The notes: generated from the letters alone by a model not told the origin. Counted from the first letter of the whole stretch, positions 1,041-55,530 are shown. The stretch is DNA of 59,234 nucleotides, filler included, from Dugesia japonica (GCA_001938525.1; 5 parts of 5 records of this genome joined end to end with filler, not necessarily neighbours in it); one strand, 5' to 3'. Program-made: numbers and translations.

Positions 1041-1904
1041 CAAGTTACGTTACTTAAGACTTTTATTTTTATCAATATCACAAATATTTTTGTGTTAATA
1101 TTTTATTGTTTTTATTTTATTTGATTTTAAAAGCTGCAGTTTAATTTATTTTTCTAAATTAAAATAAACATGTGGAACTTTTCATAAGAAAAAAATTAAA
1201 CTGATTTTTTTGAATCAATACTTTATAATTTTTTAAGTATTTTTTATTAAAATAATTAATTTCATGTAAATATTTTTAAGTATAACTGAAATATTTTTAT
1301 GTTATGGTTAAATATTCCTACTTGCAATGCATATATAGAAAACAGGTATAAATAGTTATCACTTTCAGTGAGTTTTCCAGTTTTTCAATTTGCTCTAAGG
1401 TCTCGGCCGTAGCAGCAAGCTAAACTAAAAAAACTAGCTTATAGTGTTTTATCACATCGCTATTTCGATATACACAAAAATAAAGTATTGTATTTACAAA
1501 ATATTACTTCTACTGGGGTGAAATAACCGGTCATTTAAAAGGAAAAAGAAGACAGAAAATGTAATTACAAAATAACACCGAAAGGTCCAAAAATAGAAAC
1601 ATATGAAGAAATAATTGAATCCAACGCAATCATGTTAATTAAAGAAAAAATCAAATTTATATTATAAAAACAAATAAATTCGTTATTTCAAATAATTAAT
1701 TAGGAAAGAAATAGTAATTAATTTCATTGAAAAAATAAATGAAAATTAGACCAAAATCAGTTGTTCATGAATAAAACCACTCTAGTTAGTCCCAGAATCT
1801 TGCGGTAAGAAAAACTGGAAAAATTGTTATCTGGTCAATGGGATTTCGTAATTGGAAAACGTTATNATCATCAGAGGGACTATCACAGGGGTTGGAAGAT
1901 TGGG

Positions 1905-2094
1905 CCAATAACAACCCAAGAAATAAAAATAAAACAAAGATTTAAAATCACATGAGGGTTTAAAAAAAGACGCCAATGGCGTAACAGAAAAATGTCAGAA
2001 ATTCAAGTCTACGCCAATAGAAAACCAAAAATCGGAATTAAAAATAGCCAGCCAATGCTGAGCAAATTAGGTTGCATTCAGAAAGCTATTTAAA
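1905..2094 (+). promoter_or_regulatory. Promoter: four CCAAT boxes plus TATTTAAA box
   Basis: CCAAT at 1905, 1973, 2014 and 2052; TATTTAAA at 2087; Inr-like CATTC about 30 nt downstream. Similar layout in the minus-strand copy at 44328-44527. Confidence 0.65.
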
Positions 2095-2119
2095 CCCCCT
2101 GAAAACTTACCAAAAATCC

Positions 2120-2374
2120 ATTCATTTTCTAACCACAAACTCTCTATTAATTCAGAGTAAATCGTAAACCTTGAGTGCTATAACGAAATCTGTGGAATCA
2201 TCAACGAGAAACTTGACAGTATCAGTGGTTTAATTCTTATAAATTTGATCAGAGAAATTATTGAGCATTTTAGAAAAGAACATCAATAAAATCCAAAATA
2301 CCGGAGAAAGCATTCCCAAACCAAGATTCGTATCTGTATTACTCCCGTTGCAGCAAAGAGAAATTTAATAATAA
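2120..2374 (+). other. Putative non-coding leader exon ending in A before a GTAAG donor
   Basis: No ATG in about 255 nt; CCCGTTGCAG 21 nt upstream of the donor A|GTAAGC (GT at 2375). Same motif and near-identical spacing in two other copies. Confidence 0.6.
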
Positions 2375-4546
2375 GTAAGCATATGTTGTTATTTTGGGTA
2401 ATGTCTAAATATGAATGTAATATGTTGAAGTATAAAATTAATATATTAANAGATAAATTTTAGTTATATTTTATTTTGATTTTTTTCTTTAGTTATAATA
2501 ACAACAGATATTGCCATTAATCTAAACATCAATGACTCTGTAATTGGGTATCGTGTTTTTACTCGCGGTCTGCATGATTTTCATTTCTCCCCATGATATA
2601 CGAAACAATATTTCGTGTCACACTGCACTAACTAAAATTACTCCAGATATTTTTGACAGGTACCAACAACTAATTATTTAGTGTTAGCCATGATCCCGAA
2701 GTACTTTCTAATTTTCAGGAAAGACATGAAGTCCAGTAGTTACATGTTTCACTTATCTAATTATGACAGTTCGAATATAGCCACAATGATAACACTGGCA
2801 ATCAGTTATTAAGCCAGTTTTACAATGACGTCGAGTAAGACATGCATCATCTATCTAGGTATGACTAATCACACACACCAACACATGATTTCATGTAGTG
2901 AGGTTGCCAGTTGTGTGTGTAAGCACGGCAGAAATAAGAGTTGACGAGCAGGCGAACTAATAGTTCCCTACCGCAATAACGATTCACCGGTTTCCATGTT
3001 ATGCCTCTCGATGCGCGCACACATAGTCGATTATCCTGACGAAATTCCTCCTTTTAGCTGTTGCTTGCGTCGATTCAAATAGTACCGGAGATAATTGCGA
3101 ATTGATGTACGGAATTTTTCTTTATGCAGACGGCATGCAACCACTATTAGATTGGTCACAACCTAACAGCTAATCAAAAGATGAGTCTGTACCTAATAGA
3201 CAATGAGTTAACTCGGGATTTTATGATAATTAAATAAAATATATTAGTTCTTCACTCGTATCCCATCTCCTGTCATTGAAATATATTGTTGGCAGTTTAT
3301 AATAAATCCAAAATATATGATTATTCAGAAAATACTCCACATTGGGTCGTATCCCCCAAGATCTAATCTGTCTTATTATGTCGATATGAACTGGTTATTT
3401 TCTCTAGGTGTCTTCTCGCGGTTGAACCTACGATTGATAATGGAGATTTTCTCACAATTTTCTTTTCACGTCCAATATGCGGTTGTAATGCTGGTATGAT
3501 ATCAATGAGGAGTAGGATTTGTGCAGATGGCTCAAACCACCGAATTGGGTTTGGAATACCGTCGTTGTGTTTACTTTTTCCAATATTCATTAGGTTCTGC
3601 CAAAGCAAAAAGAAATTTATAATTGACATATTATTATTTGATTGTGTTATTATTATATATTAAATTATAATGCTCAATTTGTTCAATCTTTATTGCGGAT
3701 ATGATTTTGGAATGATAACTGTTTTTAAGGACTTGGTTACCCATGGTTTTCAGTAATTTAAACTAGCGCATTGGGTTCCTATAATTTGGTCAACCTACGA
3801 TGGGATGTTATTACTACTTTTACACGTTAATCAATATTGGCAACAGTACCTACTATTATTATTGTGATATATTAGTGTCACCACTGGGGTTAATTTTTTG
3901 ATGATTTATGCATAATGCCACTATAAAATGATAACATGATTATCGAATATTGAGGGTATGATACCTATTTTTGGTGGGGCAGTTGGATAGCAAATAAATG
4001 TACTATTGATATTGGAATCTTTTCCGAGGCTTTTTTGGATAAATCACCATCCATAGTTTGGCGCTCATAAACGAATATAGTAGCGCCGATACCAATTTTT
4101 TTGGGCCTAATTTAGCTGAAATTATGAATAAGTTTTAATATATTGATCACTGCCTTAAAAAATTTTCAAATTTTTCTATTTAGTCACCCTATTATAGGTC
4201 ATACCGGCAGAATTAAGAAACACAGTGCGTTTCATTTTAAGGCAACGCAATATAGCACGTAGGAAAAAACATATCGGACATCGGTTGTTTCTGAATCCAA
4301 TAGAACATCCCGAAAAAATAGATTTAGCTTGTTTCGTGGAGATGTTCTCCTTACCATTTCCAGTGGATCTTGATGAAGTGTCAACCCCCTGCAAAATGAA
4401 ATAACTGTCATGTTTTGATCTAAATAAAAATAGTTTAATCAACATTTTGTTTGTCATATTTGGTTTATTTTTTTTGTTTGTCAGTTTATTATCGATGATT
4501 TTCATCAGAATTATGTATTTTTTTTGTAGAAACTAATAATAATAGG

Positions 4547-4951
4547 ATGGAACACAAGTTGGAAGTATTATGGGACAGGCTCACAGGACGTACCGTATTT
4601 AAGAAATACACTAACCTTCATGACAGCAATGTGGGCATCTTTGCTGACTACTCAAATCTGTCTAATGAAAATGCAAATAATGAAAGAGCTGCCGCGGAGC
4701 GCCAAGCTTTTTATCAGTGGAGCTGTCCCGATCGCACCCAAGAAATACTGCATGGTGTTACCATCATAGATCTAGCAACCAATCAAATTACTAATACGTG
4801 GCAGGATGGTCCTGCATTGGTACCTGTGTCGGCCGCTCACCTACCACGGAATACTAGGTTCACCATAGACATAGGTAACACCTTATGGGACCTAAGGAAC
4901 CTCGCTAGTGGAGGTGAATCGGAAAACAATGCGCCAAACCATGATGCGTAA
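4547..4951 (+). CDS. Hypothetical 134-aa protein, intact cassette of the multi-cassette unit
   Basis: Uninterrupted ORF, more GC-rich than its flanks; AG|GATG directly upstream and AATAAA at about 5000. Confidence 0.55.
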   Translation: MEHKLEVLWDRLTGRTVFKKYTNLHDSNVGIFADYSNLSNENANNERAAAERQAFYQWSCPDRTQEILHGVTIIDLATNQITNTWQDGPALVPVSAAHLPRNTRFTIDIGNTLWDLRNLASGGESENNAPNHDA

Positions 4952-5149
4952 AGACAATGAATTATTTTTTTTATTGGTTGTTCATTGACTAAAATATATA
5001 ATAAATGTGTTAAGAAATTTTAATTTCTTTTTCTTTTAACTGTTAAAGTCTACTTAATTTGATTCTGTAATTTGATTAGTCGATCTTTTTAACTGTTTTG
5101 CCTTAGTTAAAATATTTAAATTAATTACCAATTTCTATATATTTTGCAG

Positions 5150-5507
5150 TGCATTCATCACTAAACCGAACTACAGCTCCAACCAAAAGGAAAAGGGATA
5201 CTAGCGAGGACCAGGAAATGACTTGGGACCTCTATCACCTCGCGAAACGTCGCTAGGAGGTGGAGATGGCCACCGCGAATATTAAAGTCCTTCGGTATAA
5301 GAAAAATGTATCGCCTTTAAAAAGGAAGCCGAAGCCTCCCACATGCAAGAACGAGTATGGAAAAAGCAAATTGAGTCCTTTGCGGAAATTATCCGGTCCC
5401 ACCATGATCGAGAGAATAAACTGGTTAGTGACATCTTGCATATCAAGGAGAAAATGCCTCTCGAACCTTTCATGATAGAGAAAAGTACCCAAACTCCAGG
5501 GCCATAG
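5150..5507 (+). pseudogene. Cassette A: coiled-coil protein with C-terminal KSTQT (one stop, one frameshift)
   Basis: (M)HSSLNRTTAPTKRKRDTSED...MTWDLY...KCIAFKK...SFAEIIR...ENKLVSDIL...EKSTQTPGP* aligns end to end with 43368-43720; acceptor TTGCAG|TG; AATAAA at about 5533. Confidence 0.7.
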
Positions 5508-5666
5508 TTATCTGTGTTTATAAGACTCTGTGAATAAACCTTTCATGTTATTATGAATTTGTGTTCACTCGTCTATTTCTTTAAAGTTAAATAAAATTTT
5601 TGTCGTCCAAGATTAGGACTAATATAGTTCATTGTTAATATATCTTTAACATTTCACTAGTTTTAG

Positions 5667-6157
5667 TGCAACGTATCCAGTTGCTCCGTAGTCTAAGACG
5701 ATGTCACCGACTTATCCAGAAATTTCTGCGCAAGAGACATCTTAAGCGCTAATCTGAGCGTGCTTTGCTCCATCATCTAACGCAACGTAATAAACTGATA
5801 AAGCGTTTGGACGTGATTGTAAAGAAACAAAATGACTTAGCTGAGTGCACAAAACAGCTACTGCTGCACAAGGTTGAATTCTTGAAGCGCTTCATTGCCG
5901 ACCTGTCACGCCAGCTAGGTAATGCTGCATACCTCAACTGGGATGATAATGACAACTCAATGTTGTTCAATTTTATACCAGAAGAGCCGCCTCAGTGGTT
6001 AGACCCTGGTGCTCTAGATTGCATGTAATTTGGAAACAATATAATTTATTAGTAATCTAGTGTTTATTTTTTTCATATTAGCGAACCCGAATCAAAGGTG
6101 TACGAGTGTGAACCTCGTATTAAGTTGAAGGTCAACCGCTCTACTCCGAATATCTAA
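5667..6157 (+). pseudogene. Cassette B: basic/coiled-coil protein, two exons (5667-6024, 6082-6157), one stop
   Basis: (M)QRIQLLRSLRRCHRLIQKF...LLHHLTQRNKLIKRLDVIVKKQ...QWLDP. A 57-nt GT-AG intron (6025-6081) keeps the frame into IEPESKVYECEPRIKLKVNRSTPNI*. Homologous to 42690-43199. Confidence 0.7.
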
Positions 6158-7512
6158 TCTTGGGACATTATATTAAATTCTTGAAAGGGGTCCCCTGAGG
6201 GCTGATTTTTCCGTCACCAACTCAGGTGAAACTTCAACACTTCTATTATTTTTTATAAGGCAGTAATACATAACTATATTTAGCAATTTTTGATTAAATA
6301 TATTTTTATGTTGAGGTTCCAACTAAGCAGCTCAACTTAAATAATATCTAGGATAACATGGAATAATAAAACCTCGTGAGGAATTCGATCTACAGTTCCT
6401 GTTCTAGATTTTCATAATGGAGTCGTTGACTCGCAACCCATAGTTAATGTACATGCTCGTATTGCTTTGGCTTGGGTCTTTCTCTCTATGATACTTACTT
6501 TACTTCTCTTCCGTTGCCATGGTTACTATTTAGTAACATCAACAATACCATTGTCATAGTGTTAAAAAAATTAGTAAATTTAGTCAAGTTTGTATATATA
6601 ATATTAATTATCCCAAAAAAAAATAAAATCTTCACAATTAGGGTTAGAAGTTTATTATGGTTTGATAATAATGCATTGAGTTCTATGTTTCACTGTAGTC
6701 ATCCCAGTATATGGAATTTATTAGATAGTTTAGACGAGATATAGCTTGCCAGCTATTATTATTAGCAAATGCTGATACATATCACTCAGAAATAACAATT
6801 AAAAAATATGAAACACTCAGTAGCTAAGTGGCAATAGTTGTGCAAGGGTATTATTATGAAGAAACAAGATAGAGTTTTTACGCAGAATGGCCAATCCTCA
6901 AAGAAATTATGGTTCTTATTCATTATTCTTTTTTAATGACCATAGTTTTATATATTGGATTTTGTTTTCATTACTAAATTGGCACAAAAAGTTAATGTTA
7001 CATTTATTTTTTGTTTTTTCGATTTTATTCTGTTTATTTTGTTTTTCAATTAATTTGATGTGATTAGAATTTTAATCTCTTTCCTATATATAAAATATTA
7101 AAATATATAGAGAAAAATATTATTTCAATTGTTTCATAGTTTTAACAAGGAAAGAAAATAAAAGTGAAGTGCATTTCTTCAATGTAATTATTGAAAATAA
7201 ATTGAATTTCTATAGTTTCTGTATTTTTCTATGTTTAACAATTTTAGAATTATAATTGTAATTGTAAAAAAAAGAATTTAAGATATACGAAATTGGTCAT
7301 TTGTTAAATTCAAATAATGTTTCATGTGTATTTTCAATATTTAAGGAACGTACCTATGGCATAAAAGCAATAGAACACATGCAAAATAATAAATTTAATT
7401 ACTTTAAATGCCATAACTTACGCAATACCTTATTTAAATATAAATATGCGGTCTTCTTTTTTAAATAGTTCTGTTTTTTCCTTGTTTAGTTCTTTCAGGT
7501 TACCATCTTAAG

Positions 7513-20914: not shown

Positions 20915-21075
20915 TGTGAGTGTGTTTTGAAAAGCAAGTTGAATTTTTTGTGTGATTCGTGATCTTATTTTTAAAGACTTTTGTTTAAAAGAGAGATTTA
21001 AATAATTGATGAAGAATTTAAATAAACAAATATTTTGTTTAAGAATAAATTAAAATTATTGAATAATAAGGAATA
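20915..21075 (+). repeat. Partial LTR-like repeat, same family
   Basis: Close match to the reverse complement of 41330-41475. Confidence 0.65.
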
Positions 21076-21086
21076 ATAACTTTCTA

Positions 21087-22224: not shown

Positions 22225-22668
22225 ACTCAATTATTTATTATTTATCTTCCCATAGCGATTCAAGTTTTACAATGATTGGCACTAGCTGCGGTTCATACTC
22301 CGTCGCATCCTCGGATGTCATTGTCAACAACTGGTCCTCAAGCTGACACCAACAGAACTCCCTGTTCTATTCGCAGCTGGATTAAGGGGTTGACCGTTCA
22401 TTTGATCATCTGGAGCTCTTATTGGAGCTGCGACTTCTCCTGTTGACAGATCTGCAGTGAAGCTTGCATAACTGCCAATTGATCCTTAATGGTCCGAAAT
22501 TTCTCCACCAGTTTTCCGCCCTTGAACAACATCGATGTATACTCTTTCTCGTAATTTTCTCTTTGGTCGTAATACCACTGCACAACGCGACGGAATCCAG
22601 AATGTGTCTACTTCACCGGCGTTGGATAACACGAGCGGAATGTCGAGTCAATAATATTCTGTCATTCC
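22225..22668 (-). pseudogene. Degenerate coiled-coil ORF of the minus-strand cassette cluster
   Basis: VVQWYYDQRENYEKEY...KDQLAVMQASLQICQQEKSQLQ*ELQMIK; acceptor CACAG|GAATG upstream; relatively GC-rich island. Confidence 0.4.
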
Positions 22669-23455
22669 TGTGATAAATATATTTAATAGGCTTTCAAATA
22701 AATATATAAGAATACAACAAAATTTAGGATCTAGTTTTACGACTCTTCAACCTGTGGCCTCATATAGCTTCGTCCCCGCTTCTAACATGCGAACCAGAGA
22801 AGATCTCAATCCAAAACCAACATCTTCTCTCGTTCCCATATTTGGGGAATGTTTCTTCCCCTACCAACTTTATCTCGCACACCAACTTTGAACTGACTTT
22901 CTCCTCATCTGTTACCTCGTGTGACCTCTGATAGTTACTGAAGAAAAGTCCTTGTCTAGCAGGAAAGGATTCAGCTATTCTGATGATTATTTTTAATTTA
23001 TTTTTCATCAGCTAGACAAGGACAGATGACTGGACGAGCATCAATTAAAATAATAATTAATATTAAACGATATTTAGCGTTATTTATAGTAATAAAATAG
23101 AGTCGTAGAGACCCCTTTAATAAATTATTATAGTATGGTATTTTATTTTTATTTATTTCACTAATCATTCGATTATCATTCACACTCTAGTCAGAAAGTT
23201 CCCTCAAGCAAGATTCTGATAGGTCATAAAATAAACACAGATAAGAAATAAGAAGAAAAATAACAAAATTTAAAATACATTATTTCAATCAAATATAATA
23301 AATACACATGCAGAATTAAAAATCAATTTTCATCACTGGATCAATTTTAGGTTCACTATTTAAATCATTACTGTCATTATAAATAACCTGATCACTTTAA
23401 TGTAATAAGAATGTCGAATTCACCGCAACATAGGATCACAAAACAATCATACAGT

Positions 23456-23655
23456 CTAGTAGTTTGGGATCTTTCCTTGATTGACAGATTGGATTCGGAG
23501 GACACTTTCGGCTTGAAAACAGCAAATTTGACTCGGGATAGATTGGTAGCATAGAATTGCAGACACACTGAGATGGTCAAATGGGCAGCATAGAACTGTC
23601 AGAGAACATTTGGCGATATACACTGTCATAGTCATCAAGATAAATAGTTTTCCCA
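23456..23655 (-). CDS. Small Cys-containing protein with hydrophobic N-terminus; cassette starting AG|TG
   Basis: TTCAG|TG GGA AAA gives (M)GKLFILMTMTVYIAKCSLTVLCCPFD...ICCFQ (66 aa). Confidence 0.35.
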
Positions 23656-23710
23656 CTGAATAATATATACATAGTCTATACGCAGCAGAGAACTGCTCGA
23701 CACGAAAAAT

Positions 23711-24589
23711 TTATCGGCCCCAGAACAGATCCTCTTCGGATGCTGAATATGGCCCTTGATTAGATTGACTTGGATTGGGGAATTGACTGGAAGATTGAGA
23801 CAGTTGGTCTTTCCTTTTATGATTCACTCTTTGGTCTAATAAGCTGATTTGTGGGGCTACTGGTCGCCCATTGGTTTTATAGGTATAAAAAGTCTGTTCT
23901 CGATTTGTAGTTTTAATTTGACCTGGAGGGATTACCACTCGAATAGGAGTTTCCTTTAAAAGAACATTCTCATCGTGCAGATGCTTTACGGCATTTTCTA
24001 AATTTTGAATTTCAATGATATCTTGTTCTCTTTGCAATTGTTGGTTTCTACTTTCTTTTATTAATTGATCAATCTCTTCTTGCAATTTATTCGTCTTCTC
24101 TTGGTGGGTTCGTTGATTCACAATTCTGATTTCGTCATTATTTTCCATGGTTTTCTCGAGCATTTTTATTTTCTAGCTCTGCCACTTAATCTCTGTTTCC
24201 AATTCTTTGGCCTGATCAAGATGTCTTTTTCACATGAATGACAATTCCGATTGTAGTTGATGTATTTTCTCTTCTTTGGCTAAACATGCCTTTTCCCACT
24301 GAGCTCGGAATTGTTCTATTTCATCAAATCGTTCATCGTGGCCTTGGGGTTTCAACGTGGATTGTTTCAACTTGATCTCCAACTTCTCAAAGTGATTCTC
24401 TAATTCAAGTATCTTTGACTGTAATCTCGGTGACTCACCGCCGCGTAGCTATTCATTCGTTTTATTGTCATGGGTTTTCGATTCGTAATATAGACGGGAG
24501 TTGTCATTGTTGATGGACTTACTTTTCTCAAAATACCTTTTGATCGCCACTCGTTGTCGACTCATACTATTCTGATATCTGGATGCCAT
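23711..24589 (-). pseudogene. Coiled-coil protein, about 292 aa, three in-frame stops
   Basis: Single frame from MASRYQNSMSRQRVAIKRYL to ...EEDLFWGR*, with no frameshift; heptad-rich E/K/Q/L; AG|AGAATG upstream. Confidence 0.65.
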
Positions 24590-24791
24590 TCTCTTAATTG
24601 AAATACACTTAAATCATCATATTGAATATTTACACAATAAGACATTGGGAGTACTGATTACATAATTTACTGATTAATCAACATTTAATTGAGACTAATA
24701 TTTACAAATTGTTTTAATATTGTTTCCTTTGTTACTTTTACTGTACTGCATCCTGATTTTATGTTTATTTACAATTTGCCGGGTATTCCAC

Positions 24792-25313
24792 TCATACATA
24801 CACCACATACCACTCATCTATTGGACATTTACACACTACACATCGCTGGAACTTGTTTCTCTGGTGACATTTTTGACAAACTGCTACATGCCCACAAGAT
24901 AAATTTGATACTGAAACCGCTTTAACTTCGCATTCTCCACACCTCATCATTTTTTCTGTCTTTACTTTACATAATAATGACACCGTCTCCTCAAACTCTT
25001 TCATCTTTTCGACTAGCTTCTGCACCTCATTGAAAAACTGAACATTTCTCAATCGTGGCTCACTGGTATTCCAATAACATTCATTCCACATTTCTTTATC
25101 ATCTTTATTTGTCTGTTGCATCGTCAGTACTCCAACTATTATCAAGATAGCATTTTGATAACCAAACATTTCCTCGAAATATGACACATTCTCATGCTTC
25201 ATTCTCTGATAAATTTGTTGTAATTCTGCGATTGATTTCTTTTCCAAAATTGACTTCTCTATCATTATCTTCTCCCCCCCACATCTCCACAGCCTTTGAA
25301 AATCTTCAGACAT
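24792..25313 (-). CDS. 173-aa protein with C-terminal IAP/MDM2-type RING finger (putative E3 ligase)
   Basis: CGEC...LSCGHVAVCQKC....RCVVCKCPIDEWYVVYV* is a C3HC4 RING with a hydrophobic C-terminal tail; intact, no BIR domain seen. Confidence 0.8.
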   Translation of the reverse strand: MSEDFQRLWRCGGEKIMIEKSILEKKSIAELQQIYQRMKHENVSYFEEMFGYQNAILIIVGVLTMQQTNKDDKEMWNECYWNTSEPRLRNVQFFNEVQKLVEKMKEFEETVSLLCKVKTEKMMRCGECEVKAVSVSNLSCGHVAVCQKCHQRNKFQRCVVCKCPIDEWYVVYV

Positions 25314-25360
25314 TCTCTATACAAATTGGAATCATTCTAATTACGCACTGATTATGTAAA

Positions 25361-25455
25361 TATTAGGTTGGAACAAAAGTGCGTAGCGTTTTTTATATGA
25401 AAATGAAACTCAAAATGAAGGCCTTTATACATTTATTTAATCTGTAAAATAATTA
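25361..25455 (+). mobile_element. Mariner-type TIR at contig end
   Basis: TA|TTAGGTTGGAACAAAAGT. Confidence 0.55.
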
Positions 25456-25555
25456 NNNNNNNNNNNNNNNNNNNNNNNNNNNNNNNNNNNNNNNNNNNNT
25501 TAATTAATTAANNNNNNNNNNNNNNNNNNNNNNNNNNNNNNNNNNNNNNNNNNNN
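25456..25555. other. Artificial contig linker
   Basis: N44-TTAATTAATTAA-N44. Confidence 0.97.
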
Positions 25556-25693
25556 AAATCTATCAATTCGTTGGCAAAAGTGTGTAAACGCTAATGATTT
25601 TTATTTTTATTAATAAACCTTTTGTTTCGGCTCACTTAAGATGTTTTAAAATTAAGGTTCAAAAACGTGCAAAACTTTCTGAACAACCTAATA
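25556..25693 (+). mobile_element. Mariner transposase C-terminus and right TIR
   Basis: LSIRWQKCVNANDFYF* then ...CTGAACAACCTAA|TA. Confidence 0.7.
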
Positions 25694-25959
25694 ATATTGC
25701 CTGGGAAGTATTAAATGCTAATGTTATTATTGCCCGTGGTGATTNATATTGATATTAATATTGTTCNAGGGAATATTTAATGTTAATATTGTTGTTGAGA
25801 AAATCACTTTCTATCAATTTTGGTTAAAAAAAACATGCTGTTTCATCGATTTTCCATGAAGAAACTAATTTCACCTAATCTAAACAAAAAAATCATTAAT
25901 TTAACTTAATTAAAACCAGTTAATCATTATGTAATTTTTACATAACCGTGACATAATCA

Positions 25960-26125
25960 ATTCTCAACGCAATTAACACACACTCAACAATTAAGCCAAT
26001 CAAATTCTACACCACTTGACCTTAACAATTTCGACCAATCACAATGTATGAAACGTGTGTGCTACCAATCAAATTAAGCACCAAAGTTTTCAACCCCATG
26101 CTGTGCCGTGCGGACCTATCTACCT
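25960..26125. repeat. Polinton-like terminus with CCAATC subterminal repeats
   Basis: TTGACCTTAACAATTTCGACCAATCACAAT units related to 47590-47760; ends CTATCTACCT. Confidence 0.4.
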
Positions 26126-26419
26126 ACAATTTTACATTGCTAAAAATAGTCTTGCAGTAATTTCCAATATAAATGGATTTAAAAGATCAACTATTTTCGC
26201 AATAGTTAAGANNNNNNNNNNNNNNNNNNNNNNNNNNNNNNNNNNNNNNNNNNNNNNNNNNNNNNNNNNNNNNNNNNNNNNNNNNNNNNNNNNNNNNNNN
26301 NNNNNNNNNNNNNNNNNNNNNNNNGTATTTCTCTAATAAAAGAAGATGTAATAATGAATGTGTATTAAAACGAGTAAACCCACCATTTTCCGTTATATAA
26401 AAGGGTTCAGTTTGAGTTT

Positions 26420-26705
26420 TAAAAGAATACATACTGACCAAAAAAAAGAGGCGAACAATAAATTTTTAGTTTAAGAGCTGAATTTGCTGTAATGCTTATG
26501 TCTTTAATTTGAAGTGTTGATTTTGAAGATTCAAAACCCTTTTATATTGATGAAGTTGGATTTAATGTATCTATGCGAACCAAACATGGGAGATCTCTAG
26601 TTGGGTCACGTGCAATACATTTTGTTCCATTACTCCACTCAAGAAATATTTCAGTCTGTTGTGCTATTAACAAGAATGAAATATTATTTCATAAAGTTCA
26701 AAACA
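26420..26705 (+). pseudogene. IS630/Tc1-type transposase fragment
   Basis: FYIDEVGFNVSMRTKHGRSLVGSRA...RNISVCCAINKNEIL. Confidence 0.8.
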
Positions 26706-28529
26706 TGGTGCAATGTGTACCTTAAAAGACTTATTTTGTAATTTTTTCTTCTATTTTATTTATTGTTATTGTAATTATTTTGTTAAGATTGCTTTAAGAA
26801 TTATGTAAGCCCCAAGAGAGTCTCCAAATAAAAAAAAATAAGTACGTGTAGGGACACTTGAAGTGTATGCTGTGCTGATTTATGTTAACCAGAGAACAAT
26901 TTAATAATTTAATTAAAATACTAGAAATAATAAAATTACTATAGTTTAGCAAACCAGTAACCTAAATTTAAAAATTTTTATTTAACAAACAGAAAAGGGT
27001 AAAAATTTACTGTTTTTTGTTGCAATTGGAACTGTTTTAATATTATGTGATTTCAATTATCTTGAAATAAGTTGTGGATTTTCAACTAAAATTACACAAT
27101 AATTCTAAATCATAAAATAAAACCAATTTAGATTCATCGGACGGTACCTTGGGTTTTATTTTAATTTTGAACATTCGATTTAAAAATTTAACTTTGTCCC
27201 AATTATTATTTTGAATTTTTTTCTATATATGGCGGTTGCTAAGTTTTATAATTTATCAGATCTTTTTAAATTTTTTTAAATTTCAAATTCTCCTTTGATA
27301 AACTTCAACGGCTGGCAAGTTTCTTAAAATCTTTGATTTCAATATTTTATTTCAATATAAATTTTGTCAATTATAATAGACTTTTTTTATATAATTAATT
27401 TTAATAAATATAATTAAATTACACAAAAGTATATACATACACTCACGTGTGTATGTATATACTTTAAAACTGACAATTTTAATAAAAAGAATAATAAAAT
27501 GAAATAAAAAATAACATAACTTATGGCTTACAATACGCACTATTTTTCCGAATATATAATAAAACTTATTAATAAACTCGCTTCATTAAATGTTGCGCCA
27601 TTTTTTATGAATATTAAATGTTTTTATAAGGTTGAGCAGGTTAGAAATCTTACTGAAACAGCCGGGCACAGAATGATTTTTTACAGCTTTATTCCCCATT
27701 TCTTAAATCCATTGAGAATATATTCTCGAAGTGTAAGCAATTGTTAAGAAATTAACGTGTTCAAATGAAAATGAACCTTTTGNNNNNNNNNNNNNNNNNN
27801 NNNNNNNNNNNNNAAATGATAATTGTACCGATTATTATACGAATATGCTAAGTTATAATCCCAAATGCCTCAGAGAAGAAATAAATTATGATTAAAAGGT
27901 TTTTTATTAAATTTTTGTACATTATTAAAAATTTATTAAAGTATTGTCATGAAATATTACTATTTACGAAGTTGTTTTAATTATAAAAAATCCAAGAACA
28001 AAACTATTTCTGTTTGCAGATATGATAAAAATAAATAATGTCTATTATTCACACAACAGTAATACATAAAATACCGTAAAAATAAAGTTATAATAAAAAC
28101 ATTTATAAAAGGTATTTATATTGCTTTCGTTTATGAATAATACTTAAATAAAGCTGATTAGTTTGAATGAAGTTTGCCAATACATTTATTCTGAATTATT
28201 TTAGTTGAATATCAAATTTTATAAATTTATATTTTATATTTCATAATTTTAATGATAATAATTAAATGTCAAAATTGATTGAAATAATGTCAAAATATGA
28301 TGAAAAACCCTATTATTAAAAAAACACTGAATTCATTATAAATAACACNNNNNNNNNNNNNNNNNNNNNNNNNNNNNNNNNNNNNNNNNNNNNNNNNNNN
28401 NNNNNNNNNNNNNNNNNNNNNNNNNNNNNNNNNNNNNNNNNNNNNNNNNNNNNNNNNNNNNNNNNNNNNNNNNNNNNNNNNNNNNNNNNNNNNNNNNNNN
28501 NNNNNNNNNNNNNNNNNNNNNNNNNNNAG

Positions 28530-32264: not shown

Positions 32265-33908
32265 ATTTTATTCATAATTAATAAAATAAAATTACGGAAG
32301 TAACAATTAGTTAGATGATTTATTCCATCATCTCTACATACTGTTGAATAGATTAAACTATTTTATTGATTTAAAATGTCATTCTTNNNNNNNNNNNNNN
32401 NNNNNNNNNNNNNNNNNNNNNNTGATAAAATATCTAGGGATACAATATTTATTCATTGGCTTAATTTTCATTAAGTAAATATTAGAATTAGGTCAAAATT
32501 CAATTTGTTAACTAACTCAGTCAGATGATAATGAAATACCAGGTTATCGATAATATTAATTTGTCTGAAAAATACGATTAATCAAATGATTAAAATGGTC
32601 TTAAAATAGTAAAAATAGATTCCAGATTTAGATCACGTTTTCAATATGAAAACAATAAATTTAAAAGAAAATCTTTAAAGAACATTTCTTTCATTTAATC
32701 TCTAATCAATAAATCCACGATAATTAGAACGGTCGCATACCGCAGTTATCATGTTTTTTTCGCTTAGGTGGAGAATCTGTGGTCATGCGCTCTCATCTAC
32801 CTACTGGTCATGTAAAAATATTTGTTAGCAAAAATTGAACAAGAAGTACGCAACACGCGGAAAGTAGTACATATTAATCGAAAAAGATATATCATATCAT
32901 ACTGATCTGCAGAAAACAATACGCCTGGTTACCTAAGTTAAACATAAAATTAATACGTAAATGTAAATAAATGAAAGCACCATCATATAAAAATACGTTA
33001 AAAAATATAGTAAAGTTATATTTATCTAAATTTGCTTGTAGGAACTTCTGAGTACTATGCGAGGATCGCATATAAAAAAAAATATTTTTGAAAAATTCAG
33101 TTTTTTTTTGAAAACTTAAATTAAAATATTTTTTAAAAAAATTGGGAATTTTCAATTTTTACTTATGTCGGCAAAAAGGGGTTAAAGGGGTTTGAAAAAA
33201 GTATTTTAAATTTTATGATTTTTAAAATATATTTTGTTTGTTTTTTGATTAAAAATAAAATAATTAAACCGAAATGTTGCATTTAATTTCTCATCAAATT
33301 TGAAATCCTTATAAATTAAATAAGAAAATTATGTTCAATTATCGTTGTTAGATGAGCTTGAGACACTCATCGTTGAATTTAAGACTTGATAATTTCATTG
33401 AGAAATTATAATAAAACAAAGATAACAAATATAAATTTGTTTTTTAAAAAAAGCCAACCATTTTAATTTGTCTAATTTTTTCCATTAGTTCAAATTTTCA
33501 TTTTTATTTTTAAATACATTACATTAAACTATTTCAAAAACTTAATTTAAATGAATTAAATTATTTACTTAATGGNNNNNNNNNNNNNNNNNNNNNNNNA
33601 TTCCTTTTATTAAATTATTAAATTAAATAATAAAATTTAATTTAATCCAATCACTTATATTTTTCTAATTTTTTCTAATTTTTTAATAAAAATTTCAACT
33701 TATTTTAAAAATACATATTATATTAAATTATTTGCAAAAAAATTGAATAACTTTTAAATTTTCTACATTTATTTTATCAAATTAATTATTGAATTATTTA
33801 TGCTAAAAAATTTAACTGGCTCAATCCATTTCTCAGTTGTATTAGTAGTGGTGTAGAGGAGGTATATTCTGTCCAGGGTGGTCATTAAAATTTGACAATT
33901 CACACAAC

Positions 33909-34408
33909 ATTAGGAAAAATTATTTTTTTATTTAAAATTTATTTTTAAATGCAAATATCAAAATGATGTTCTTCTATTTTCAAAGATTGTTCAATATTTC
34001 GGATATGTCTTCTTCAGTAACTATTGTTAAAATAATTCTGGTTATACATTAATCTGATTAAAATTAATTTTTAATAAAAAATTAATTTATTGAAAATATT
34101 CATTTATTTTACAGGTTAGAATAATTTGAAAAAATGTTTTACTTCATGGTTTCCACCAATTAACCGAGAATATGTTCAATAAATTTAAAATTTAATGTTG
34201 TAATTAGTGATCAATGAAAATTAATTTTAATCAGATTAATGTAAATTGTGTTTCTATTTAAACATTTATAACAAAAATGAATTGAGCAATAGTTCCTGAA
34301 GAAAGCATAACAGAAATATTGAACAATCTCTGAAAATAGAAGAATATCATTTTGATCTTTCCATTTAAAAATAAATTTTAAATAAAAAAATTTATTTTTT
34401 CCTAATAT
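33909..34408. repeat. Foldback inverted repeat (about 160-190 bp arms)
   Basis: TTCTTCTATTTTCAAAGATTGTTCAATATTTC versus GAAATATTGAACAATCTCTGAAAATAGAAGAA; TACATTAATCTGATTAAAATTAATTTT also inverted. Confidence 0.75.
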
Positions 34409-35036
34409 TCATTTATTTTAATGATCCAGGGTTAGAATAATTTTAAAAAAAGTTTTATGTTTTTTTATTGTTTGGAAAAATTTAAAAAATAATACTTTTA
34501 AATAATTATTAAATCTGTATTAAAATAAAATTGATCTGGGTAATTCATCCCACTTCCTTGATTAATATAAACAAAAGTGCCGCCATCATCGAACCACTCT
34601 TTCTATGTCACTGTGTATTTGTTATTCGTCATTCAATTTTGGACTATTCGTTATATTGATTTAATTATTCACATCAATGCTGATGATTTATTTTAAGTAT
34701 CGCATTTGGTAAAACCAATCGAATAATCAATTTAATAAATATAATTATTATCATGATTATTACTTTATCATAATAATGAAACTTACTGGAAATAGAAAAT
34801 CAAATCATTCGGATGAAAACTTAAAAACGAATGAAATAAAAAAAGTACTACAAAAATATTTAATTCAATTTGTAATTGAAACTATTTCTACAGAATTCTA
34901 ATTTATCAAATTTACCATCAACATGCTCCACAAACAATGTGAATTTGATTATTAGATTTTTTGATAAATATTTTTAATTAGAATTCAGGTTCAAAGGCAG
35001 ATCTTAAATAAAGAATATTCTAATTTTTATTCACCT

Positions 35037-35432: not shown

Positions 35433-35808
35433 GCAATGATGACAATTTGAAAATGTTCATCAACAATTCGCTCTATCAACTTACAATTTTAAATGATAAT
35501 CACACACTTTCACTCAAATATGTTTTTTAATAATAAATTATTGAAATGAAAATAAAATTTTTCTGTTAATTTTTATTTCTTTAATTCTTAAAGTTTAGTA
35601 TTTTCTCAGACTATTATGAAATTTTTAGACTAGTAAAATTTTATTTACAAACCGTCATTTTAGACTTGTGATACTTAGGTAAAAATAATATGGATTATTT
35701 ATTTATTTTATATTTATTTTATATTATAATTATTTATATTTCAAACTAAAATGATTTCATAAATCTTACTATATTTGTCAAAAATTAGAATTATTTTCTC
35801 TCATTTAG

Positions 35809-36370
35809 ACTATTTTTTCCTCCGATTTATGACAATATTAATGAAAATATATCAGAAAACAAGGAAATATTTGGTAAACAACTGGTTCGAAACAACTATC
35901 ACCAAATTCTTGCGGATCTCGATATTGAAATTGTGAATGAAAAGGCATTGTTTAATAATGATGAGAAATTATCTTATCCGGGTTTGAGATTCTTCACTGA
36001 AGCCGATTCACAAGATATTCTTAAAACCAAGCGACCATTTATGAAACATATGGATACTAAAGATTCTCATAAAGACAATTTAATGGAAAATATAATTAAT
36101 AAGTCTCGTCGTTGGGAAATAGATGATAGAATTCGATCAAGAGAATCATTTGATTACTTGGTACCATGTCATAGTCGAATTGATCATCAGAAATTACATC
36201 GGGAATTTGAAGATTCGAAAGATGCTAATACAAAACAATGGCAACCGTTAACTCTTGGTGCAGTTATGGATTTCAAAATTACAAAGAAACCGACTTTTGT
36301 CGACGAACAAAGTCTTCATTTCAGACAAGGTTCTGTAAAATTGTGGAGGCCAAAATTAGCACAAACGTGA
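35809..36370 (+). CDS. Terminal exon of a host gene, tentatively TSGA13-like
   Basis: Acceptor TCTCTCATTTAG at 35808; 186 open codons (LFFPPIYD...); C-terminal WQPLTLGAVMDFK...FRQGSVKLW recalls the TSGA13 EPLTL...FRNG...W tail (from memory); AATAAA at about 36563. Confidence 0.6.
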
Positions 36371-41475: not shown

Positions 41476-42689
41476 CTGAGTTACTGTATAATCCATTCAT
41501 TACAGATAAAGCTAGAGAAAGTTTATTTAGAATATCGTTGGATGATTCAAAAAATTATGGTATTATCGAAAATGCCAAATTAAGTAGATCCAATCTAAAT
41601 CCATAAGAATAACGAAAATCGTTTCGATCGTTGCTAAATCTTGAATCAGAAAATTATATTAAACGGTTACATCGATGAAAATAAGAGTTAGCAAAATTGT
41701 TTCAATGTAGAAATGCAAAAAATATTGAAGCAGTTAAAGACGCTATATTGTAAGAATAATTTCGAACAAAAATGTTTCTGTTTTAAAAAATAAAATTGAA
41801 GAAATACAACAGCAAAATATTGAAAAAATGGCAAATGTCACAAATAGATTTGATGCAGCTAAAAGATATTAAAAGATAATCAAACAAATACAATTAATTA
41901 ACTTTTTAACCAATTAACTAATTAATTGTTATACGTGAATAATTCACGGACATTTGGTAATTTATTGCACTAAATCAATAGTAAATGTGACTATTTTACC
42001 CACGACCTATGTTGCGGATTAATAAATATTCAATTATCATGTTAAAATGTTTCGAAATGTAGATATGGCAAAAATAAACTAATGAACAACTAATAAAATA
42101 TACTAATTAAATTAAACAACTTTCATTAAGAGTTTACATGATATATAGTTGAATAGCTTAGTCGGATGACAAATATAATATAAACATTCAGTTAATCTTG
42201 ACCATAACATACTAGAAAACATCAAACAAAGAAGTAATAAGTACAAATAGTTGAATAATCAATTGAGTCTTCCAAAAGCCATTAGATATATTAGTGGAAT
42301 ACTCTATTATATCTTTTCATTAAATCTTTGGAAAAAGAAAGATATTCTTTATACTACGATTATTGTAATTCAAAAGAAAGCCTTTACAACAAATCTCTAA
42401 AGTTCAAGAGAAATCCAGGAATAAAAGCTACTATTATACTATTTAAAATCGGAAATAGATCATTTTATAGGCCGGAAAAAATCAAAATGTCATTCAATAA
42501 CTGTACTTCTTACAATCCTTTTATTAATACACCTACGAGTTTTCTAAAAATATTTTAAAAACTTAAACTACAAAAAGAATATTTAATGCTATTATTTGGG
42601 TTCCACCTGAGTTGAGATGAGAAAAATGTCTGCTGGGGAAAAATCAGCCCTCGGGGAACCCTTTCAAGAATTTACCTAATGTCCCTAAT

Positions 42690-43199
42690 TAGGTCTTCGA
42701 TATAGAGTGGTTGACTTCCAGCACGTATTTGAAGTGGACACTTGTATACCTTTATTTTCGGGTTCTCCATTTTCCCTATATTTTAATTTAAACAACAAAT
42801 TAACAATAAAGTATCATGAAGATTCATTCCTTTTAAATTACATGAAATTGAGAGAACACGGATCTAACCACTGGGTTGACTCCCCAGACGTGAAACCAAA
42901 AGCGGCTTCATCATCTTCGCTATTCCAGCGAGTTCACGTCTCTTATTCAAGTCGATTAGACAGGTCAGCAATGTATTGCTGTGAAAAGTCTATCTTATGA
43001 CGAATGACTTGTTTTGCCTGTTCAGTCAACTCGCTTTGCTTTTTTACTATGACGTCTAGTTTTTGAATCAACCGGTTTCTTTGGGTGAAGTGCATCAAAA
43101 GAGCTCGTTCATTTTGACGCTTGATGCGTCATTCGAGTAATAATTTTTGTATAAGCCTACGGCACCTGTGGAGACTGTTTGGTATCTGTATCCTGGGTA
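42690..43199 (-). pseudogene. Cassette B homologue
   Basis: PRIQIPNSLHRCRRLIQKL...ERALLMHFTQRNRLIQKLDVIVKKQSEL...YIADLS...QWLDPCSL; donor AT|GTAATTT at the same position as in copy 1. Confidence 0.7.
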
Positions 43200-43367
43200 C
43201 TAAAAAATAATCATTAATTAATAAATAGAGGGTTACAAACAGATTTAATCAAATACAAAATTTAATTAGTGTAAATTAAACAATTAAGATGAAAAAATAA
43301 ATCATGTTGCTACGGAAGAAGACTTTTATTTATAAACACAAAACAAAAGAAATTTACAACGTTACGG

Positions 43368-43720
43368 TCACGAGGTTTGTGTACCCTTATTCCTCATTAA
43401 TGACTGCAATGGCATAGCTTTTCTGAGTGTTAAGATGTCCTCAACCAGTTTATTCTCTCAGTCATCGAGGAACCGGATAATTTCCGCAAAGGATTATATT
43501 TGATGTTTCCAGAGTCTCTCTTGAGCATGAGAGGCCTTTGCATACTTTTTTAATGCGATGCATTTATTTTTGTACCGCTTAACTTTACTTTCTGCAGCAG
43601 TGGTGTCAGCTTCCCATTGACGCTTAGCTGATTTGTAAACATCCCACGTCATAGAGATATCCTCACTGCTTTCTCTTACCTTTTTGGTTGGTGCCGTAGA
43701 GCGATTTAAAGAGGAATGCA
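43368..43720 (-). pseudogene. Cassette A homologue ending KGTQTS*
   Basis: (M)HSSLNRSTAPTKKVRESSED..MTWDVYKSAKRQWE..KCIALKK..SFAEIIR..ENKLVEDIL..NKGTQTS*; acceptor TTAG|TG. Confidence 0.7.
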
Positions 43721-45623
43721 CTAATAAAAAAGAAAATATAACTGAAAATAACCTTTATTAAATAAGGTTAATAATAGATAACACTTCCTTAATGACTCTT
43801 TTTCAAATGACTAAGACGGGGTGTCACAAACAACTCAGTTAACTTAATTAACATTTGAAAGCTAAAGAAAAATTAAAATCCATTAAAGATAAACGAGGTT
43901 TATTTACATCAAATAATTAATTAACCAAAACACATTACTTACTAATAAGATTAACAAGATTTCTGCAACGGGAATATAATCAAAATCTGCTTTTCTTTCT
44001 TTCTCTATTTCGGAAAATGAGTCCTGTATATAGGCTTGTTTAACTGCTTAGTTGGAAATTGAACACTTCGGCTAGATATTTTAAGGATAGTCCGAATACC
44101 AATGGGATAAATTACGTAAAGTTGAATTGCTTCTTGTCCTTTCTTTTCCAAACTCGATTAACACTAATTCTAATTAGAAAATTGTTTACCCTAGTTTTCT
44201 TTTCTTTGACAGATACTTTGATAGTTTTGGTTGATATTTCAGTTGTTAAGAAATAATGAATTTTTAACACTAAGATAGTTAAAATTATTAAAAATTGTTG
44301 CGTTTTTTCGTCTAAAATTTGAGGGCATTATATATGATTTTCTTCGCACTCCGACTCTTTCTGCATTGACCGTCTATTTCTGTTTCAAATTTCTTGTTTC
44401 TGATTGGGGTTTTCTCTAAAATTCTAAACATTTTGACAATTTTCTGCTACATTATTGGTGCCTATTTTTGGAGCACCTTGTGATTTTTATGTTTTNGTTT
44501 CATGTTTCTTTTCTGGTTTCTTATTGGACTATTCTTCTAAACCTTTTTAGAGGTCCTTCTGATATTGATATGATATTCTGGTTGGAAAATTCTATTGCCC
44601 TATAGCTTTCTCCTTCCAGTTTTTCTTACTAGGACCTTTTATGATCTTCCAGAGCAAAGATATCTTACAAAAACTGATTTTTCGTCAATTATTCTTCCTT
44701 TTTGCAATAAATTAATTAATTTTTCTTTGTTAATTAATTATTATTTTACTGATCATTTTTCTTGTTTCTAATTAATAATTATAATTTTCTTTAATAATTA
44801 ACATTGATGAACGTTAATAATACGTCCATTTAATGTTTTACTTCTTCATTTTCCTTTTTTATTCCGATTTATTAGTATGATAGTGATGGTTATACTAAAC
44901 AATAACTATTCTTAATTAGCCCCCTTTTTAAGTTCATTATATCTGATGTGGGTCCTTGGTTTTAATTTTTCTTTAAAAGTCGGGTGGTTCACCCCAACAT
45001 TATGATTGGAATGAGTAGATGAATTACCAATATGTTCATATGGCCAGTGATAGACCGAATGGTGTAGCTAGAGGGCGAAGAGGGTCTATTATTTCCCGGG
45101 CGCCACTCGCAAAGGGGCACCAAATCGTCCCAAAGACAAACAAGATTTTCTAATTTAATGATCTTTTTTAGCAAGGTGTCTGCAACCGATAAAGTTTGAG
45201 TACCACTAATATATATTATATTACTATAAGTTTGTCGAATTTTGGGAGGACATCGGTTATTTCCGCTACGCCACTGGACTGACACAAAAAGAAAATGAGT
45301 CACGAAGGTCTATTGACCAGTACCTTCAAAATATAGAGTTTTACGTAGTTAATGGCTTAAAAATTTTGACCGTTGAGTAACACGTGTGAATGATGACAGT
45401 TACAAAAATGTTTCTATGAAGACCTATAGCAGTGCATAATCAAAACAATCAACAAATAGAGGTTATAAAAAATTGTATTTTATAAAAGACATNNNNNNNN
45501 NNNNNNNNNNNNNNNNNNNNNNNNNNNNNNNNNNNNNNNNNNNNNNNNNNNNNNNNNNNNNNNNNNNNNNNNNNNNNNNNNNNNNNNNNNNNNNNNNNNN
45601 NNNNNNNNNNNNNNNNNNNNNNN

Positions 45624-48509: not shown

Positions 48510-48719
48510 GAATTCATTTAATATAAAAGCTTTGATCAAAATTTTGGTTTTCTTTATTGATATTGGATAACAATTCGATATTTTGACCTTATCTTCGTCA
48601 GGAATTGACTTTAAAAAAAAGTCAATTCCTGACGATAACAAGGTCGAAATATCGAATTGTTATCCAATATCAATGAAAAAACCAAAATTTTTATCAAAGC
48701 TTTTATATTAAATGAATTC
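48510..48719. repeat. 210-bp near-perfect palindrome flanked by (AAT)n
   Basis: GAATTCATTTAATATAAAAGCTTTGAT...CGTCAGGAATTGACTTT / AAAGTCAATTCCTGACG...ATCAAAGCTTTTATATTAAATGAATTC. Confidence 0.9.
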
Positions 48720-51287: not shown

Positions 51288-52620
51288 TAAGGGGACTGGA
51301 AATTAATGTCGTTTTTTTACGTTAAATTCAAACAAATAAGTTTTAAACAAGTTTTTATTTTTATCAATCACCCTCGTTATCAACAGCTTTTTGACATCTA
51401 GTCTGTAAATTTTCAATTCTGGATCGATAAAAATCGATTGGAATTTGAGAAAAATATCTGGAGGTGGCATTTTGGATATCATTCCAATTTTCAAGTTTTT
51501 TGTCACATATAATGTGTTGTAGCAATCGGAGCAAATGAAAATCCGATGTTGCAAAGTCTGACAAGTATAGAGGGTGAAACAGTAACTGCCAATGCGGTAA
51601 GGCAAAATATTAAGTAAAAAAATTTGAAAATTTTTTTTAATATTGTCTATTTGTTTTAAAAACAGGGGAATTTATAAAAGATGTAAATTAAAGATAGATT
51701 ATTTATTAGTCAACGACGAGATCATGTCAATAGAGATTATCCACAGAAGAATCAAAGATGTTTTTGGTGCAGAAAATGGGACACGTGAGAAGAGAGTATA
51801 AAAAAGAGAGATGTTTTCNNNNNNNNNNNNNNNNNNNNNNNNNNNNNNNNNNNNNNNNNNNNNNNNNNNNNNNNNNNNNNNNNNCAGAAGAATTGGTATG
51901 GATATTTTAATGCTGTGTAAGCACAAGAGGAAGAGGATGGACGAGAAGATGAAATTAGTGAAAATGTGTCAGAAGTACTGTGCCCAAATGGGATTGCTCC
52001 ATCATTGGGTTTAGGGATTGAACTACAGACTTTAAGTCTGTACCATCATAATATAAATATCCAAATAGAGCTGCAGTTCAAAACAGTAAGAGAATGGATA
52101 CATCACCAAACACACAAAAGCACTTTTGGTATGTAAATCTGATTTAGCAGTACTTCATGACAATTCATTCGAAATGAACCTTTGCTTTTTGCTTGGTGGA
52201 TTATCATAGTGAATTCATTTTTCATCTCCAGTTATAAAACAAAAAATTGCTTCTCTATTGTACCATTGAAGCAATACGTTGCATGTGGTGGATCGGTTAG
52301 CCTTGTTTTTAATCAATTATAGATGTTCTTGGATAGTCAGTCTAGGTTGATTTAGAGGGTTTCACAGTTTTCCAATTNTATGACACGGATTTGCTTCCAT
52401 TTCCGTCCTTAACATGTCATTGTCTAAAGTTGTTGGTTTTCCTGATAGATATTAGTCGAAAAATTGAAAATTACTGGATCTAGACTGAGAAAACCACTTT
52501 TGACATTTACAAACGTCTAAATATTTTTGGTAGCAACTGTTGCGTTATTACCCTTTCGAAACTCAAAAAGCATACAATATCAGATATATATGGACATTTC
52601 ATATAAATATTTGAGTTAAT
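51288..52620 (-). mobile_element. Mariner element, decayed and interrupted (about 51610-52030)
   Basis: N-terminal MLFEFRKGNNAT; ITGDEK*IHYDNP; C-terminal LYLSDFATSDFHLLRLLQH...FYRSRIENLQTRCQKAVDNEGD. Confidence 0.8.
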
Positions 52621-54729: not shown

Positions 54730-55530
54730 TTTTGAATAAATATTCCGCCAAATACAGCTACAGTTTATCTCTCCTACCAATATTTTTTTGGTTCGAAGCT
54801 ACCTCTTTAAAATACCCCACAAACTTGCAATGGTTTGTATATGTATATCAGAATTATCTGGAGATATAAAGTTAATAGAGTGATTTACCGTTTTGTCATT
54901 ATAACTTGAAGTTTCACTGAAAAACTTAATGTATGACACCCGTTGATTGCTGTAAACTGTGGTATTCCCGTGAATAAGATTTTTAATCAAATCTCCTAAT
55001 GTTTTAGCAACATGATTGTCCAAGATCTTTAAAAAATGATGACCGCCTTCACGCTCGATATCCCCAAATAGCCATTGACCTTTGTTGTATTTCCGTTTCT
55101 TGGCAACAAGAATTTCATCTATCTCAACAATACTTTCTTTACCCAAGATAGGATATTTACTGTCTATAAAAATAGGAATGTCTTTTCGAACCAGTGAAAG
55201 CACTTTTGTTACAGCAGCGTTAGAATGGTCAATCTTTTCACAAATTTCAATTACGCTTGTATTACTAGTGAACAACTCAAATATTAGTAAAACATCATCA
55301 ATATCTAGTCTCAATTTTGAAAAAGACGAAAAATTTCTTACAACAAAGTGCTGTTCATAAGTTTTACACCAATATCTGACACCAACTGTTTTTGTTGTGT
55401 CACTACTGATGGTAAAGTGAGTTCTATATTGGAGACACTCGACATGATCATGATTTATTCTCAAAGCTTTCATAATCGACCTTTTCGATTTGCAATCTCG
55501 TTTTATTCAGTTGATAAGTTCATTTCATTG
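54730..55530 (-). pseudogene. Merlin / ISXO2-like (IS1595 family) DDE transposase, decayed
   Basis: IVEIDE...KRKYNKGQWLFGDIER...TTVYSN...TVNHSINFISP...IHIQTIASLWGILKR. Confidence 0.88.

Follow-up and report, generated by a model that had tools for sequence, protein, structure and literature searches.

The LTRs of retroelements are usually taken as non-coding regulatory ends. In complex retroviruses an accessory gene lies in or overlaps the LTR and is expressed from spliced RNA, as is the case for sag of MMTV, nef of HIV and bel of foamy viruses. These are single genes placed in U3, upstream of the TATA box. Solo LTRs of Gypsy-type elements (Metaviridae) have been described with the end consensus TGTTRNR...YNYAACA, a TATA box and AATAAA, short target duplications, and R and U5 regions more conserved than U3 (PMC3601003); the word 'ORF' does not occur in the main text of that study. 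The Burro elements of planarians are giant Gypsy elements with an internal region of up to 25 kb and a total length of more than 30 kb, implying LTRs of several kb. They are present in thousands of copies in an AT-rich host and, in the parts of the report that deal with them, their accessory domains are located in or just upstream of the polyprotein (PMC6431247). In Drosophila gypsy the start codon of env, a single gene of the internal region, is made by splicing of AT to G, as set out in the relevant section of PMC2585583. In MDG1/412 the two short accessory ORFs sORF1 and sORF2 lie near the 5' end of the transcript, between LTR and gag, with a premature poly(A) site between them; according to the relevant pages of PMC11952523 they are unspliced and sORF2 is a membrane protein.

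The window analysed here (the whole stretch of 59,234 nt from Dugesia japonica, filler included) contains two homologous units which can be compared with these systems. Copy 1 (1511..6239, plus strand, 4729 bp) and copy 2 (42593..44999, minus strand, 2407 bp) are in opposite orientation in the window and, by self-BLAST, homologous end to end. A sequence-only reading had placed the bounds of copy 2 at 44997 and 42596, which have to be corrected to 44999 and 42593. The self-BLAST blocks paired positions 1632-2000 with 44804-44431 (67% identity), 5148-5437 with 43722-43432 (71%) and 5993-6212 with 42873-42637 (71%). In the alignment a promoter block, a leader donor, cassette A, cassette B and a conserved 3' block follow one another in the same order in both copies, and CCAAT and TATA-like boxes stand at matching places, so that the earlier claim of preserved promoter boxes, splice sites and order holds. 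In agreement with that reading, no frame for a transposase, a reverse transcriptase or a capsid was seen in either copy by six-frame reading or Pfam; no gag, pol or PBS was seen attached to either of them in the window.

Both copies are decayed members of an abundant mobile repeat. They are probably solo LTRs of a Gypsy-type retroelement that carries a modular array of accessory genes inside its LTR. The retroviral LTR genes differ in position and number, since the cassettes of the window lie downstream of the CCAAT and TATA boxes and their number varies. With the Gypsy solo LTRs (PMC3601003) the two units share the end consensus, TATA box and AATAAA, the better conserved 3' part and the short target duplication; unlike the LTRs covered by the main text of that study, they hold at least two selected protein cassettes behind a predicted spliced leader. 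The resemblance to Burro, which can be drawn by description only, extends to the copy number in the thousands, LTRs that would be several kb long, the possession of accessory ORFs and the AT-rich host, whereas the accessory domains in the consulted parts of PMC6431247 are not in the LTR. Drosophila gypsy env provides a parallel for a start codon created at a splice joint (PMC2585583, env section), but the joint predicted here would be A+TG and would serve several alternative cassettes within an LTR-like unit. The products of MDG1/412 are comparable as short accessory ORFs (PMC11952523, in the pages concerned), although none of the proteins A, B and X described below has a hydrophobic segment. 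A variable array of spliced cassettes inside an LTR-like unit was not found in the literature searched; the main Burro paper, Repbase or the supplements of planarian genome papers may describe one.

The ends of both copies are of LTR type and follow the pattern TGTTGGG...TTCAACA. The 5' end of copy 2 (44992..45003, minus strand; TGTTGGGG), which includes the left target copy ATAA at 45003-45000, and the 3' end of copy 1 fit the Gypsy consensus TGTTRNR...YNYAACA exactly (PMC3601003, main text), while the other two ends carry changes. The 3' end of copy 2 (42589..42600, minus strand) is decayed. Short target duplications of 4-6 bp, a Gypsy-type trait, are present: copy 1 has CTTC on either side (1507-1510 and 6240-6243; 4/4, chance 0.009), and copy 2 by ATAA and ATAG (3/4). 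Because three or more of four positions match by chance with a probability of 0.086, the latter duplication is weak when taken alone. Similarity between the copies stops at 1511/44999 and at 6239/42593. Inside these borders the ends of the two copies align better than any of 1000 shuffles, at 25 as well as at 40 nt, and outside them the flanks are unrelated (573 and 833 of 1000 shuffles were as good). Among the contigs listed, one unique to the left side stops 32 nt inside the proposed 5' end of copy 1, which agrees with a start of the repeat at this point; contigs of the right side begin 11 nt outside the proposed end, which the model does not account for. In the orientation of the cassettes neither a PBS nor a convincing PPT was found in the flanks of either copy; in the opposite reading direction one AT-rich purine run lies beside copy 1, without a counterpart at copy 2. 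An LTR had been among the candidates originally named for the carrier, and the ends together with the 4-bp duplication support it.

One feature of the ends counts against a plain LTR. Those of copy 2 pair with each other as an imperfect, gapped inverted repeat some 22-35 nt long (at 40 nt, none of 1000 shuffles did as well), which exceeds the 7-15 nt usual for LTR ends. The units might instead be non-autonomous cut-and-paste DNA elements that depended on a Ginger-like integrase-type transposase, carried the spliced cassettes as cargo and had short TIRs as ends. We regard this as rather unlikely, even though introns and poly(A) signals in a DNA element call for no additional assumption and although TGT..ACA-type ends, 4-bp duplications and possible introns also describe Ginger in the sections of PMC2836005 devoted to it. 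Ginger1 as characterised there has TIRs of about 40-270 bp and CCGG/CCGT targets, and Ginger2 TIRs of about 45-300 bp and RTATAY targets; both have a transposase gene, of which no remnant is present inside either copy. The repeat seen here is shorter, gapped and in copy 1 not significant (equalled by 88 of 1000 shuffles), the target sequences read CTTC and ATAA, and conservation is very unequal between the two ends of the units. Membership of Ginger1 could be rejected for want of TIRs of 40-270 bp and of a CCGG/CCGT target, and membership of Ginger2/Tdd because the repeat is imperfect with its 22-35 nt or so and the target of copy 1 is CTTC rather than the AT-rich RTATAY.

The abundance of the family was assessed by read and contig depth on copy 1, which holds the extra block discussed below, with two DNA contig sets and two RNA runs. 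Contig pieces identical to the window had a depth of about 7-28. Summed depth was highest in the 3' block, with 56,000-83,000; cassette A had 12,500-28,500, the CCAAT block 1,200-1,600 and the leader 145-255, and in the extra block it was mostly 100-640, rising to 1,200 next to A. Relative to single-copy depth this amounts to about 5,500-6,200 for the 3' block, 1,400-1,900 for cassette A, 105-141 for the CCAAT block, 15-22 for the leader and 23-28 for the extra block, ratios which are rough since summed depth is not the same as copy number. The flanks of copy 1 have raised depth too (80-220), and for this reason the depth of the extra block is not far above the local repeat background. The element clearly belongs to a large family, whose conservation is by far strongest at the 3' end. 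This preference for the 3' over the 5' side in the depth on copy 1 matches the greater conservation of R and U5 over U3 in the LTRs treated in PMC3601003. The depth, and the presence of related ends in unrelated flanks, also agree with the earlier proposal that the carrier is mobile and present in many copies, and speak against a conserved host locus.

The conserved 3' block of copy 2 (42601..42700, minus strand), likely U5, contains near 42694-42674 a hairpin of 7 bp, behind which lies a 16-nt motif (42674-42659) that is identical in both copies; a scan for hairpin and motif gave 2 matches where 0.14 were expected. Folding of the whole block was no better than that of shuffled sequences (z of -0.07 and -0.58), and Rfam gave no match on copy 2. 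By eye, relatives found at loose ends beside the 3' motif have the same small hairpin arms with changed inner pairs. Another stretch with similarity between the copies is a short frame after cassette B (42775-42675, minus strand; 6082-6170, plus strand), in which some residues are common to both (KVY.C). It could represent a truncated third cassette, or else sequence conserved without coding.

The promoter-like region of copy 2 (44325..44810, minus strand), so called from its motifs, is an AT-rich block with CCAAT boxes at 44527, 44458 and 44407, some variants of these, and a TATA box at 44334. The CCAAT boxes point towards the cassettes in both copies, and in that direction the TATA box stands 30-40 nt past the last CCAAT-type box. 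Transcription would be expected to start about 30 nt past TATA, near 44305, and the predicted non-coding leader exon (43943..44305, minus strand) ends in an A before a GTAAGT donor. As had been noted earlier, cassette A is reached after only some 220 nt in copy 2: donor (43943|43942) and acceptor (43721|43720) enclose a predicted intron 1 of 222 nt (43721..43942, minus strand), which is the site of the extra block of copy 1. ATG is rare in the leader, with none in 294 nt of copy 1 and one, beside the TATA box, in 397 nt of copy 2, and no methionine occurs there in the phase-1 frame, in which one base remains at the donor. Both leaders end in A, and three of the four shared cassettes, namely A of both copies and B of copy 1, continue with TG in the phase of the donor (background 0.053 after AG). 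Splicing would therefore create an ATG. At the acceptors of B in copy 2 and of island E1 in copy 1 the phase is kept; joining does not yield an ATG at these two. AATAAA follows within 25-81 nt in five of the six cassettes tested (background 0.38 per 150 nt). Expression by one leader spliced onto each cassette is a prediction from motifs and reading phase.

RNA reads from the two runs (113 and 38 on copy 1) were all partial fits, 100 and 32 of them less than 90% alike. They came mostly from distant relatives and fell on the 3' block and on cassette A, with both strands covered. No splice joint was found among them and no RNA start or end was mapped; a search of sequencing runs for copy 2 gave no RNA run among those listed. 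The promoter and poly(A) motifs and the depth gradient fit a possible order U3-R-U5.

A solo LTR needs a way to full-length RNA if sense introns and internal poly(A) signals lie within it, and this is a point against our reading. The survival of both through reverse transcription would have a simple explanation if the solo LTR were in the opposite orientation, the cassette unit being antisense to the genomic RNA. CCAAT boxes can function in both directions, and RNA reads at the conserved block are found on both strands. The TATA box of both copies nevertheless has its spacing from the last CCAAT-type box in the direction of the cassettes, no matching TATA was found when one was looked for in the other direction of copy 2, and the most conserved block occupies the 3' end in the cassette direction, as it should for U5. 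We give an antisense LTR little credence for these reasons and retain the solo LTR in the orientation of the cassettes.

Cassette A of copy 2 (43368..43720, minus strand) has 116 codons with two in-frame stops, and AATAAA 37 nt past its stop; cassette B (42838..43199, minus strand) has 119 codons with three in-frame stops, and AATAAA (42756) 81 nt past its stop. In copy 1 (A and B, 5150..6028, plus strand) A contains one stop and one frameshift and B one stop, so both cassettes are now broken in both copies. Between the copies B can be aligned without gaps over 119 codons and A over 115 codons in two blocks. The proteins had been judged about half identical by eye, and the counts of 71/112 codons for A and 60/115 for B are in keeping with this. 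Identity at the three codon positions was 0.72/0.83/0.43 for A (pN/pS 0.32, bootstrap omega 0-0.25), 0.60/0.73/0.32 for B (pN/pS 0.31, synonymous sites saturated) and 0.66/0.78/0.37 for A and B jointly (pN/pS 0.31, synonymous sites again saturated). An omega of 1 was reached in none of 1000 bootstrap replicates. Four of the five other frames gave pN/pS of 0.92-1.98; the in-register antisense frame gave 0.46 and 0.50, as expected, and had more stops. Past purifying selection on the two cassettes, previously suggested by inspection, is thus borne out by the comparison between the copies. Since the proteins were kept while synonymous sites came to be at or near saturation, the copies derive from long-separated subfamilies.

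It might be asked whether the cassettes could begin at their own methionines. Cassette A has a conserved internal methionine at codon 23, but the 23 codons upstream of this first internal methionine show the same constraint (0.78/0.78/0.43), and the first methionine of B in copy 1 comes no earlier than residue 98. An upstream start is therefore needed.

Both proteins are basic and helical. For B, confident helices were predicted at 2-26 and 30-90 (pTM 0.41), the second of them long, and no viral fold matched at E up to 0.001. To judge by predicted shape alone, which makes this a guess, the most likely role of such long helical products would be that of adaptors or regulators that oligomerise. 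No protein relatives of A were found by database search, and a two-copy profile of B recovered none among 1.84 billion representatives; for X the best Atlas score was 0.87, which is of lead level only, and no relative was found. Pfam returned sub-threshold helical matches for A and B and nothing for X and the islands E1-E4, and a PDB sequence search a single chance-level match (E 0.25). DNA motif scans of metagenome and viral contigs gave no match, a protein scan of viral contigs none among 65 candidate stretches, and a tRNA search found none. The protein scan of metagenomes left one candidate of 152 (L001), which was rejected because its match lay outside any ORF of at least 100 aa in a bacterial-looking contig.

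In copy 1 the donor (2374|2375) and the acceptor of A (5149|5150) are about 2.77 kb apart, compared with 222 nt in copy 2. The additional 2.7 kb had been thought to consist of ORF-bearing islands. GC-richer islands are indeed present at about 2492-4951, but only one of them, ORF X, is an unbroken frame. Island E1 (2492..3190, plus strand) starts with an acceptor followed by a decayed frame in the phase of A and B, with 9 stops in 233 codons as against 13-20 in its other frames. Islands E2-E4 (3250..4410, plus strand) are decayed and their frames uncertain: E2, which has one hydrophobic stretch, contains 2-3 stops in two frames, and for E3 and E4 none of the frames of the cassette strand stands out clearly. 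ORF X (4547..4951, plus strand; 134 aa, with its own ATG) has no stop in 146 codons counted from 4510. AATAAA is present after E1 and after X, 48 nt past the stop in the latter; the fold prediction of X was unusable (pLDDT 36).

Is this block part of the family, or did an unrelated element or captured host DNA insert into copy 1? The islands are without similarity to A, B or each other, E3 and E4 lack a clear frame, none of the contigs listed spans the 5' junction, and the break cannot be placed, as most alignments of the introns lacked significance (136, 83 and 4 shuffles of 500 were as good). On the other hand the borders show neither a target duplication nor an inverted repeat of their own beyond AT-rich chance words, E1 begins at an acceptor in the A/B phase, E1 and X are each followed by AATAAA, and the depth resembles that of the leader next to it. 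Contigs of the two DNA sets that are not identical to copy 1 cover the whole of the block. At least three of the contigs listed, with about 85-89% identity, run across the end of X and the spacer, and one of them extends 27 nt into A; a relative of about 85% identity has X joined to A, so another copy must have the same junction. An unrelated insertion is therefore very improbable, and the block probably belongs to the family. Joints inside copy 1, such as that of 2545 to 3730 in both DNA runs, are hints of other cassette inventories; they are single contigs with sides of about 30 nt.

The idea that the carrier is a Polinton or virus-like accessory region is not supported: both copies stand alone as units, each with ends and a 4-bp duplication to itself. 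Polinton/Maverick elements have AG..CT ends, long TIRs, a 6-bp duplication, polB and integrase. Membership was rejected on ends and duplication and because Pfam found neither polB nor integrase inside the copies.

The ends, the target duplication, the multi-copy state, the selection and the conservation of sites and phases are observed; the LTR identity, promoter, splicing and U3/R/U5 borders, as we infer them, would give the following scheme. The 5' part of about 700 bp with CCAAT boxes and TATA would be U3, and the conserved last 140 bp or so U5. Transcription from the predicted start would run through the ATG-poor leader to the A at its GT donor. Each cassette would have its own acceptor and usually its own AATAAA, and the choice of acceptor and poly(A) site would produce one two-exon mRNA per cassette, the start codon being formed at the joint by A from the leader and TG from the cassette. 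Any module of acceptor, ORF and poly(A) site placed behind the leader would be expressed, and subfamilies could therefore gain or lose modules there and leave the rest unharmed; that of copy 1 would carry about 2.7 kb more of them. The full element, with gag-pol between two such LTRs, would be located elsewhere, and the two copies in the window would be remnants of recombination between LTRs that have decayed since. We put forward, as a tentative proposal that is somewhat less than evenly balanced, that this Gypsy-type family uses its LTR as an expandable expression platform, in which one promoter and a leader donating an A serve exchangeable cassettes downstream of the start site, every solo LTR forms an independent unit of several genes, and subfamilies exchange cassettes behind the leader. 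If this is true, an LTR with variable, selected and spliced accessory genes would represent a retroelement layout nearer to complex viruses, and many solo LTRs of the genome would be possible sources of small unknown proteins rather than inert debris. The rule of gene recruitment would be simple: an acceptor with TG behind it, a reading frame and a poly(A) signal would suffice for a module.

The window contains several other features. A small GC-richer element (45055-45280) borders copy 2 directly on its upstream side; it contains two related 19-nt words at a distance of 168 nt and looks by eye like a short non-autonomous DNA transposon. Farther upstream, about 660 bp from copy 2, a 467-codon open frame with an N-terminal RING finger (47061-45660, minus strand) runs into an assembly gap. 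A second RING ORF (24792-25316; Pfam C3HC4), weakly like cIAP RING domains (E 0.002), is part of a region at 25316-22400 (minus strand); behind it come coiled-coil frames (24620-23711) and then decayed sequence with a resemblance, by eye, to an integrase end, without a Pfam match. This region may be a piece of a Gypsy element whose accessory gene lay upstream, and shows no link to copies 1 and 2. A 193-codon frame at 35789-36370 (plus strand) resembles a host exon, with no Pfam match above the cut-off and no PDB match. Broken frames at 13075-14772 (minus strand) look by eye like a Polinton-type DNA polymerase B and neighbouring genes, without Pfam support. Other remnants are a fragment of an ISXO2-like transposase (54799-55506, minus strand; E 4e-4), a GIY-YIG fragment (19565-19945, minus strand; E 2e-4) and, by eye, a mariner-like C-terminus (51364-51609, minus strand). 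Palindromic (self-inverted) repeats of about 500 and 210 bp are located at 33906-34409 and 48510-48719.
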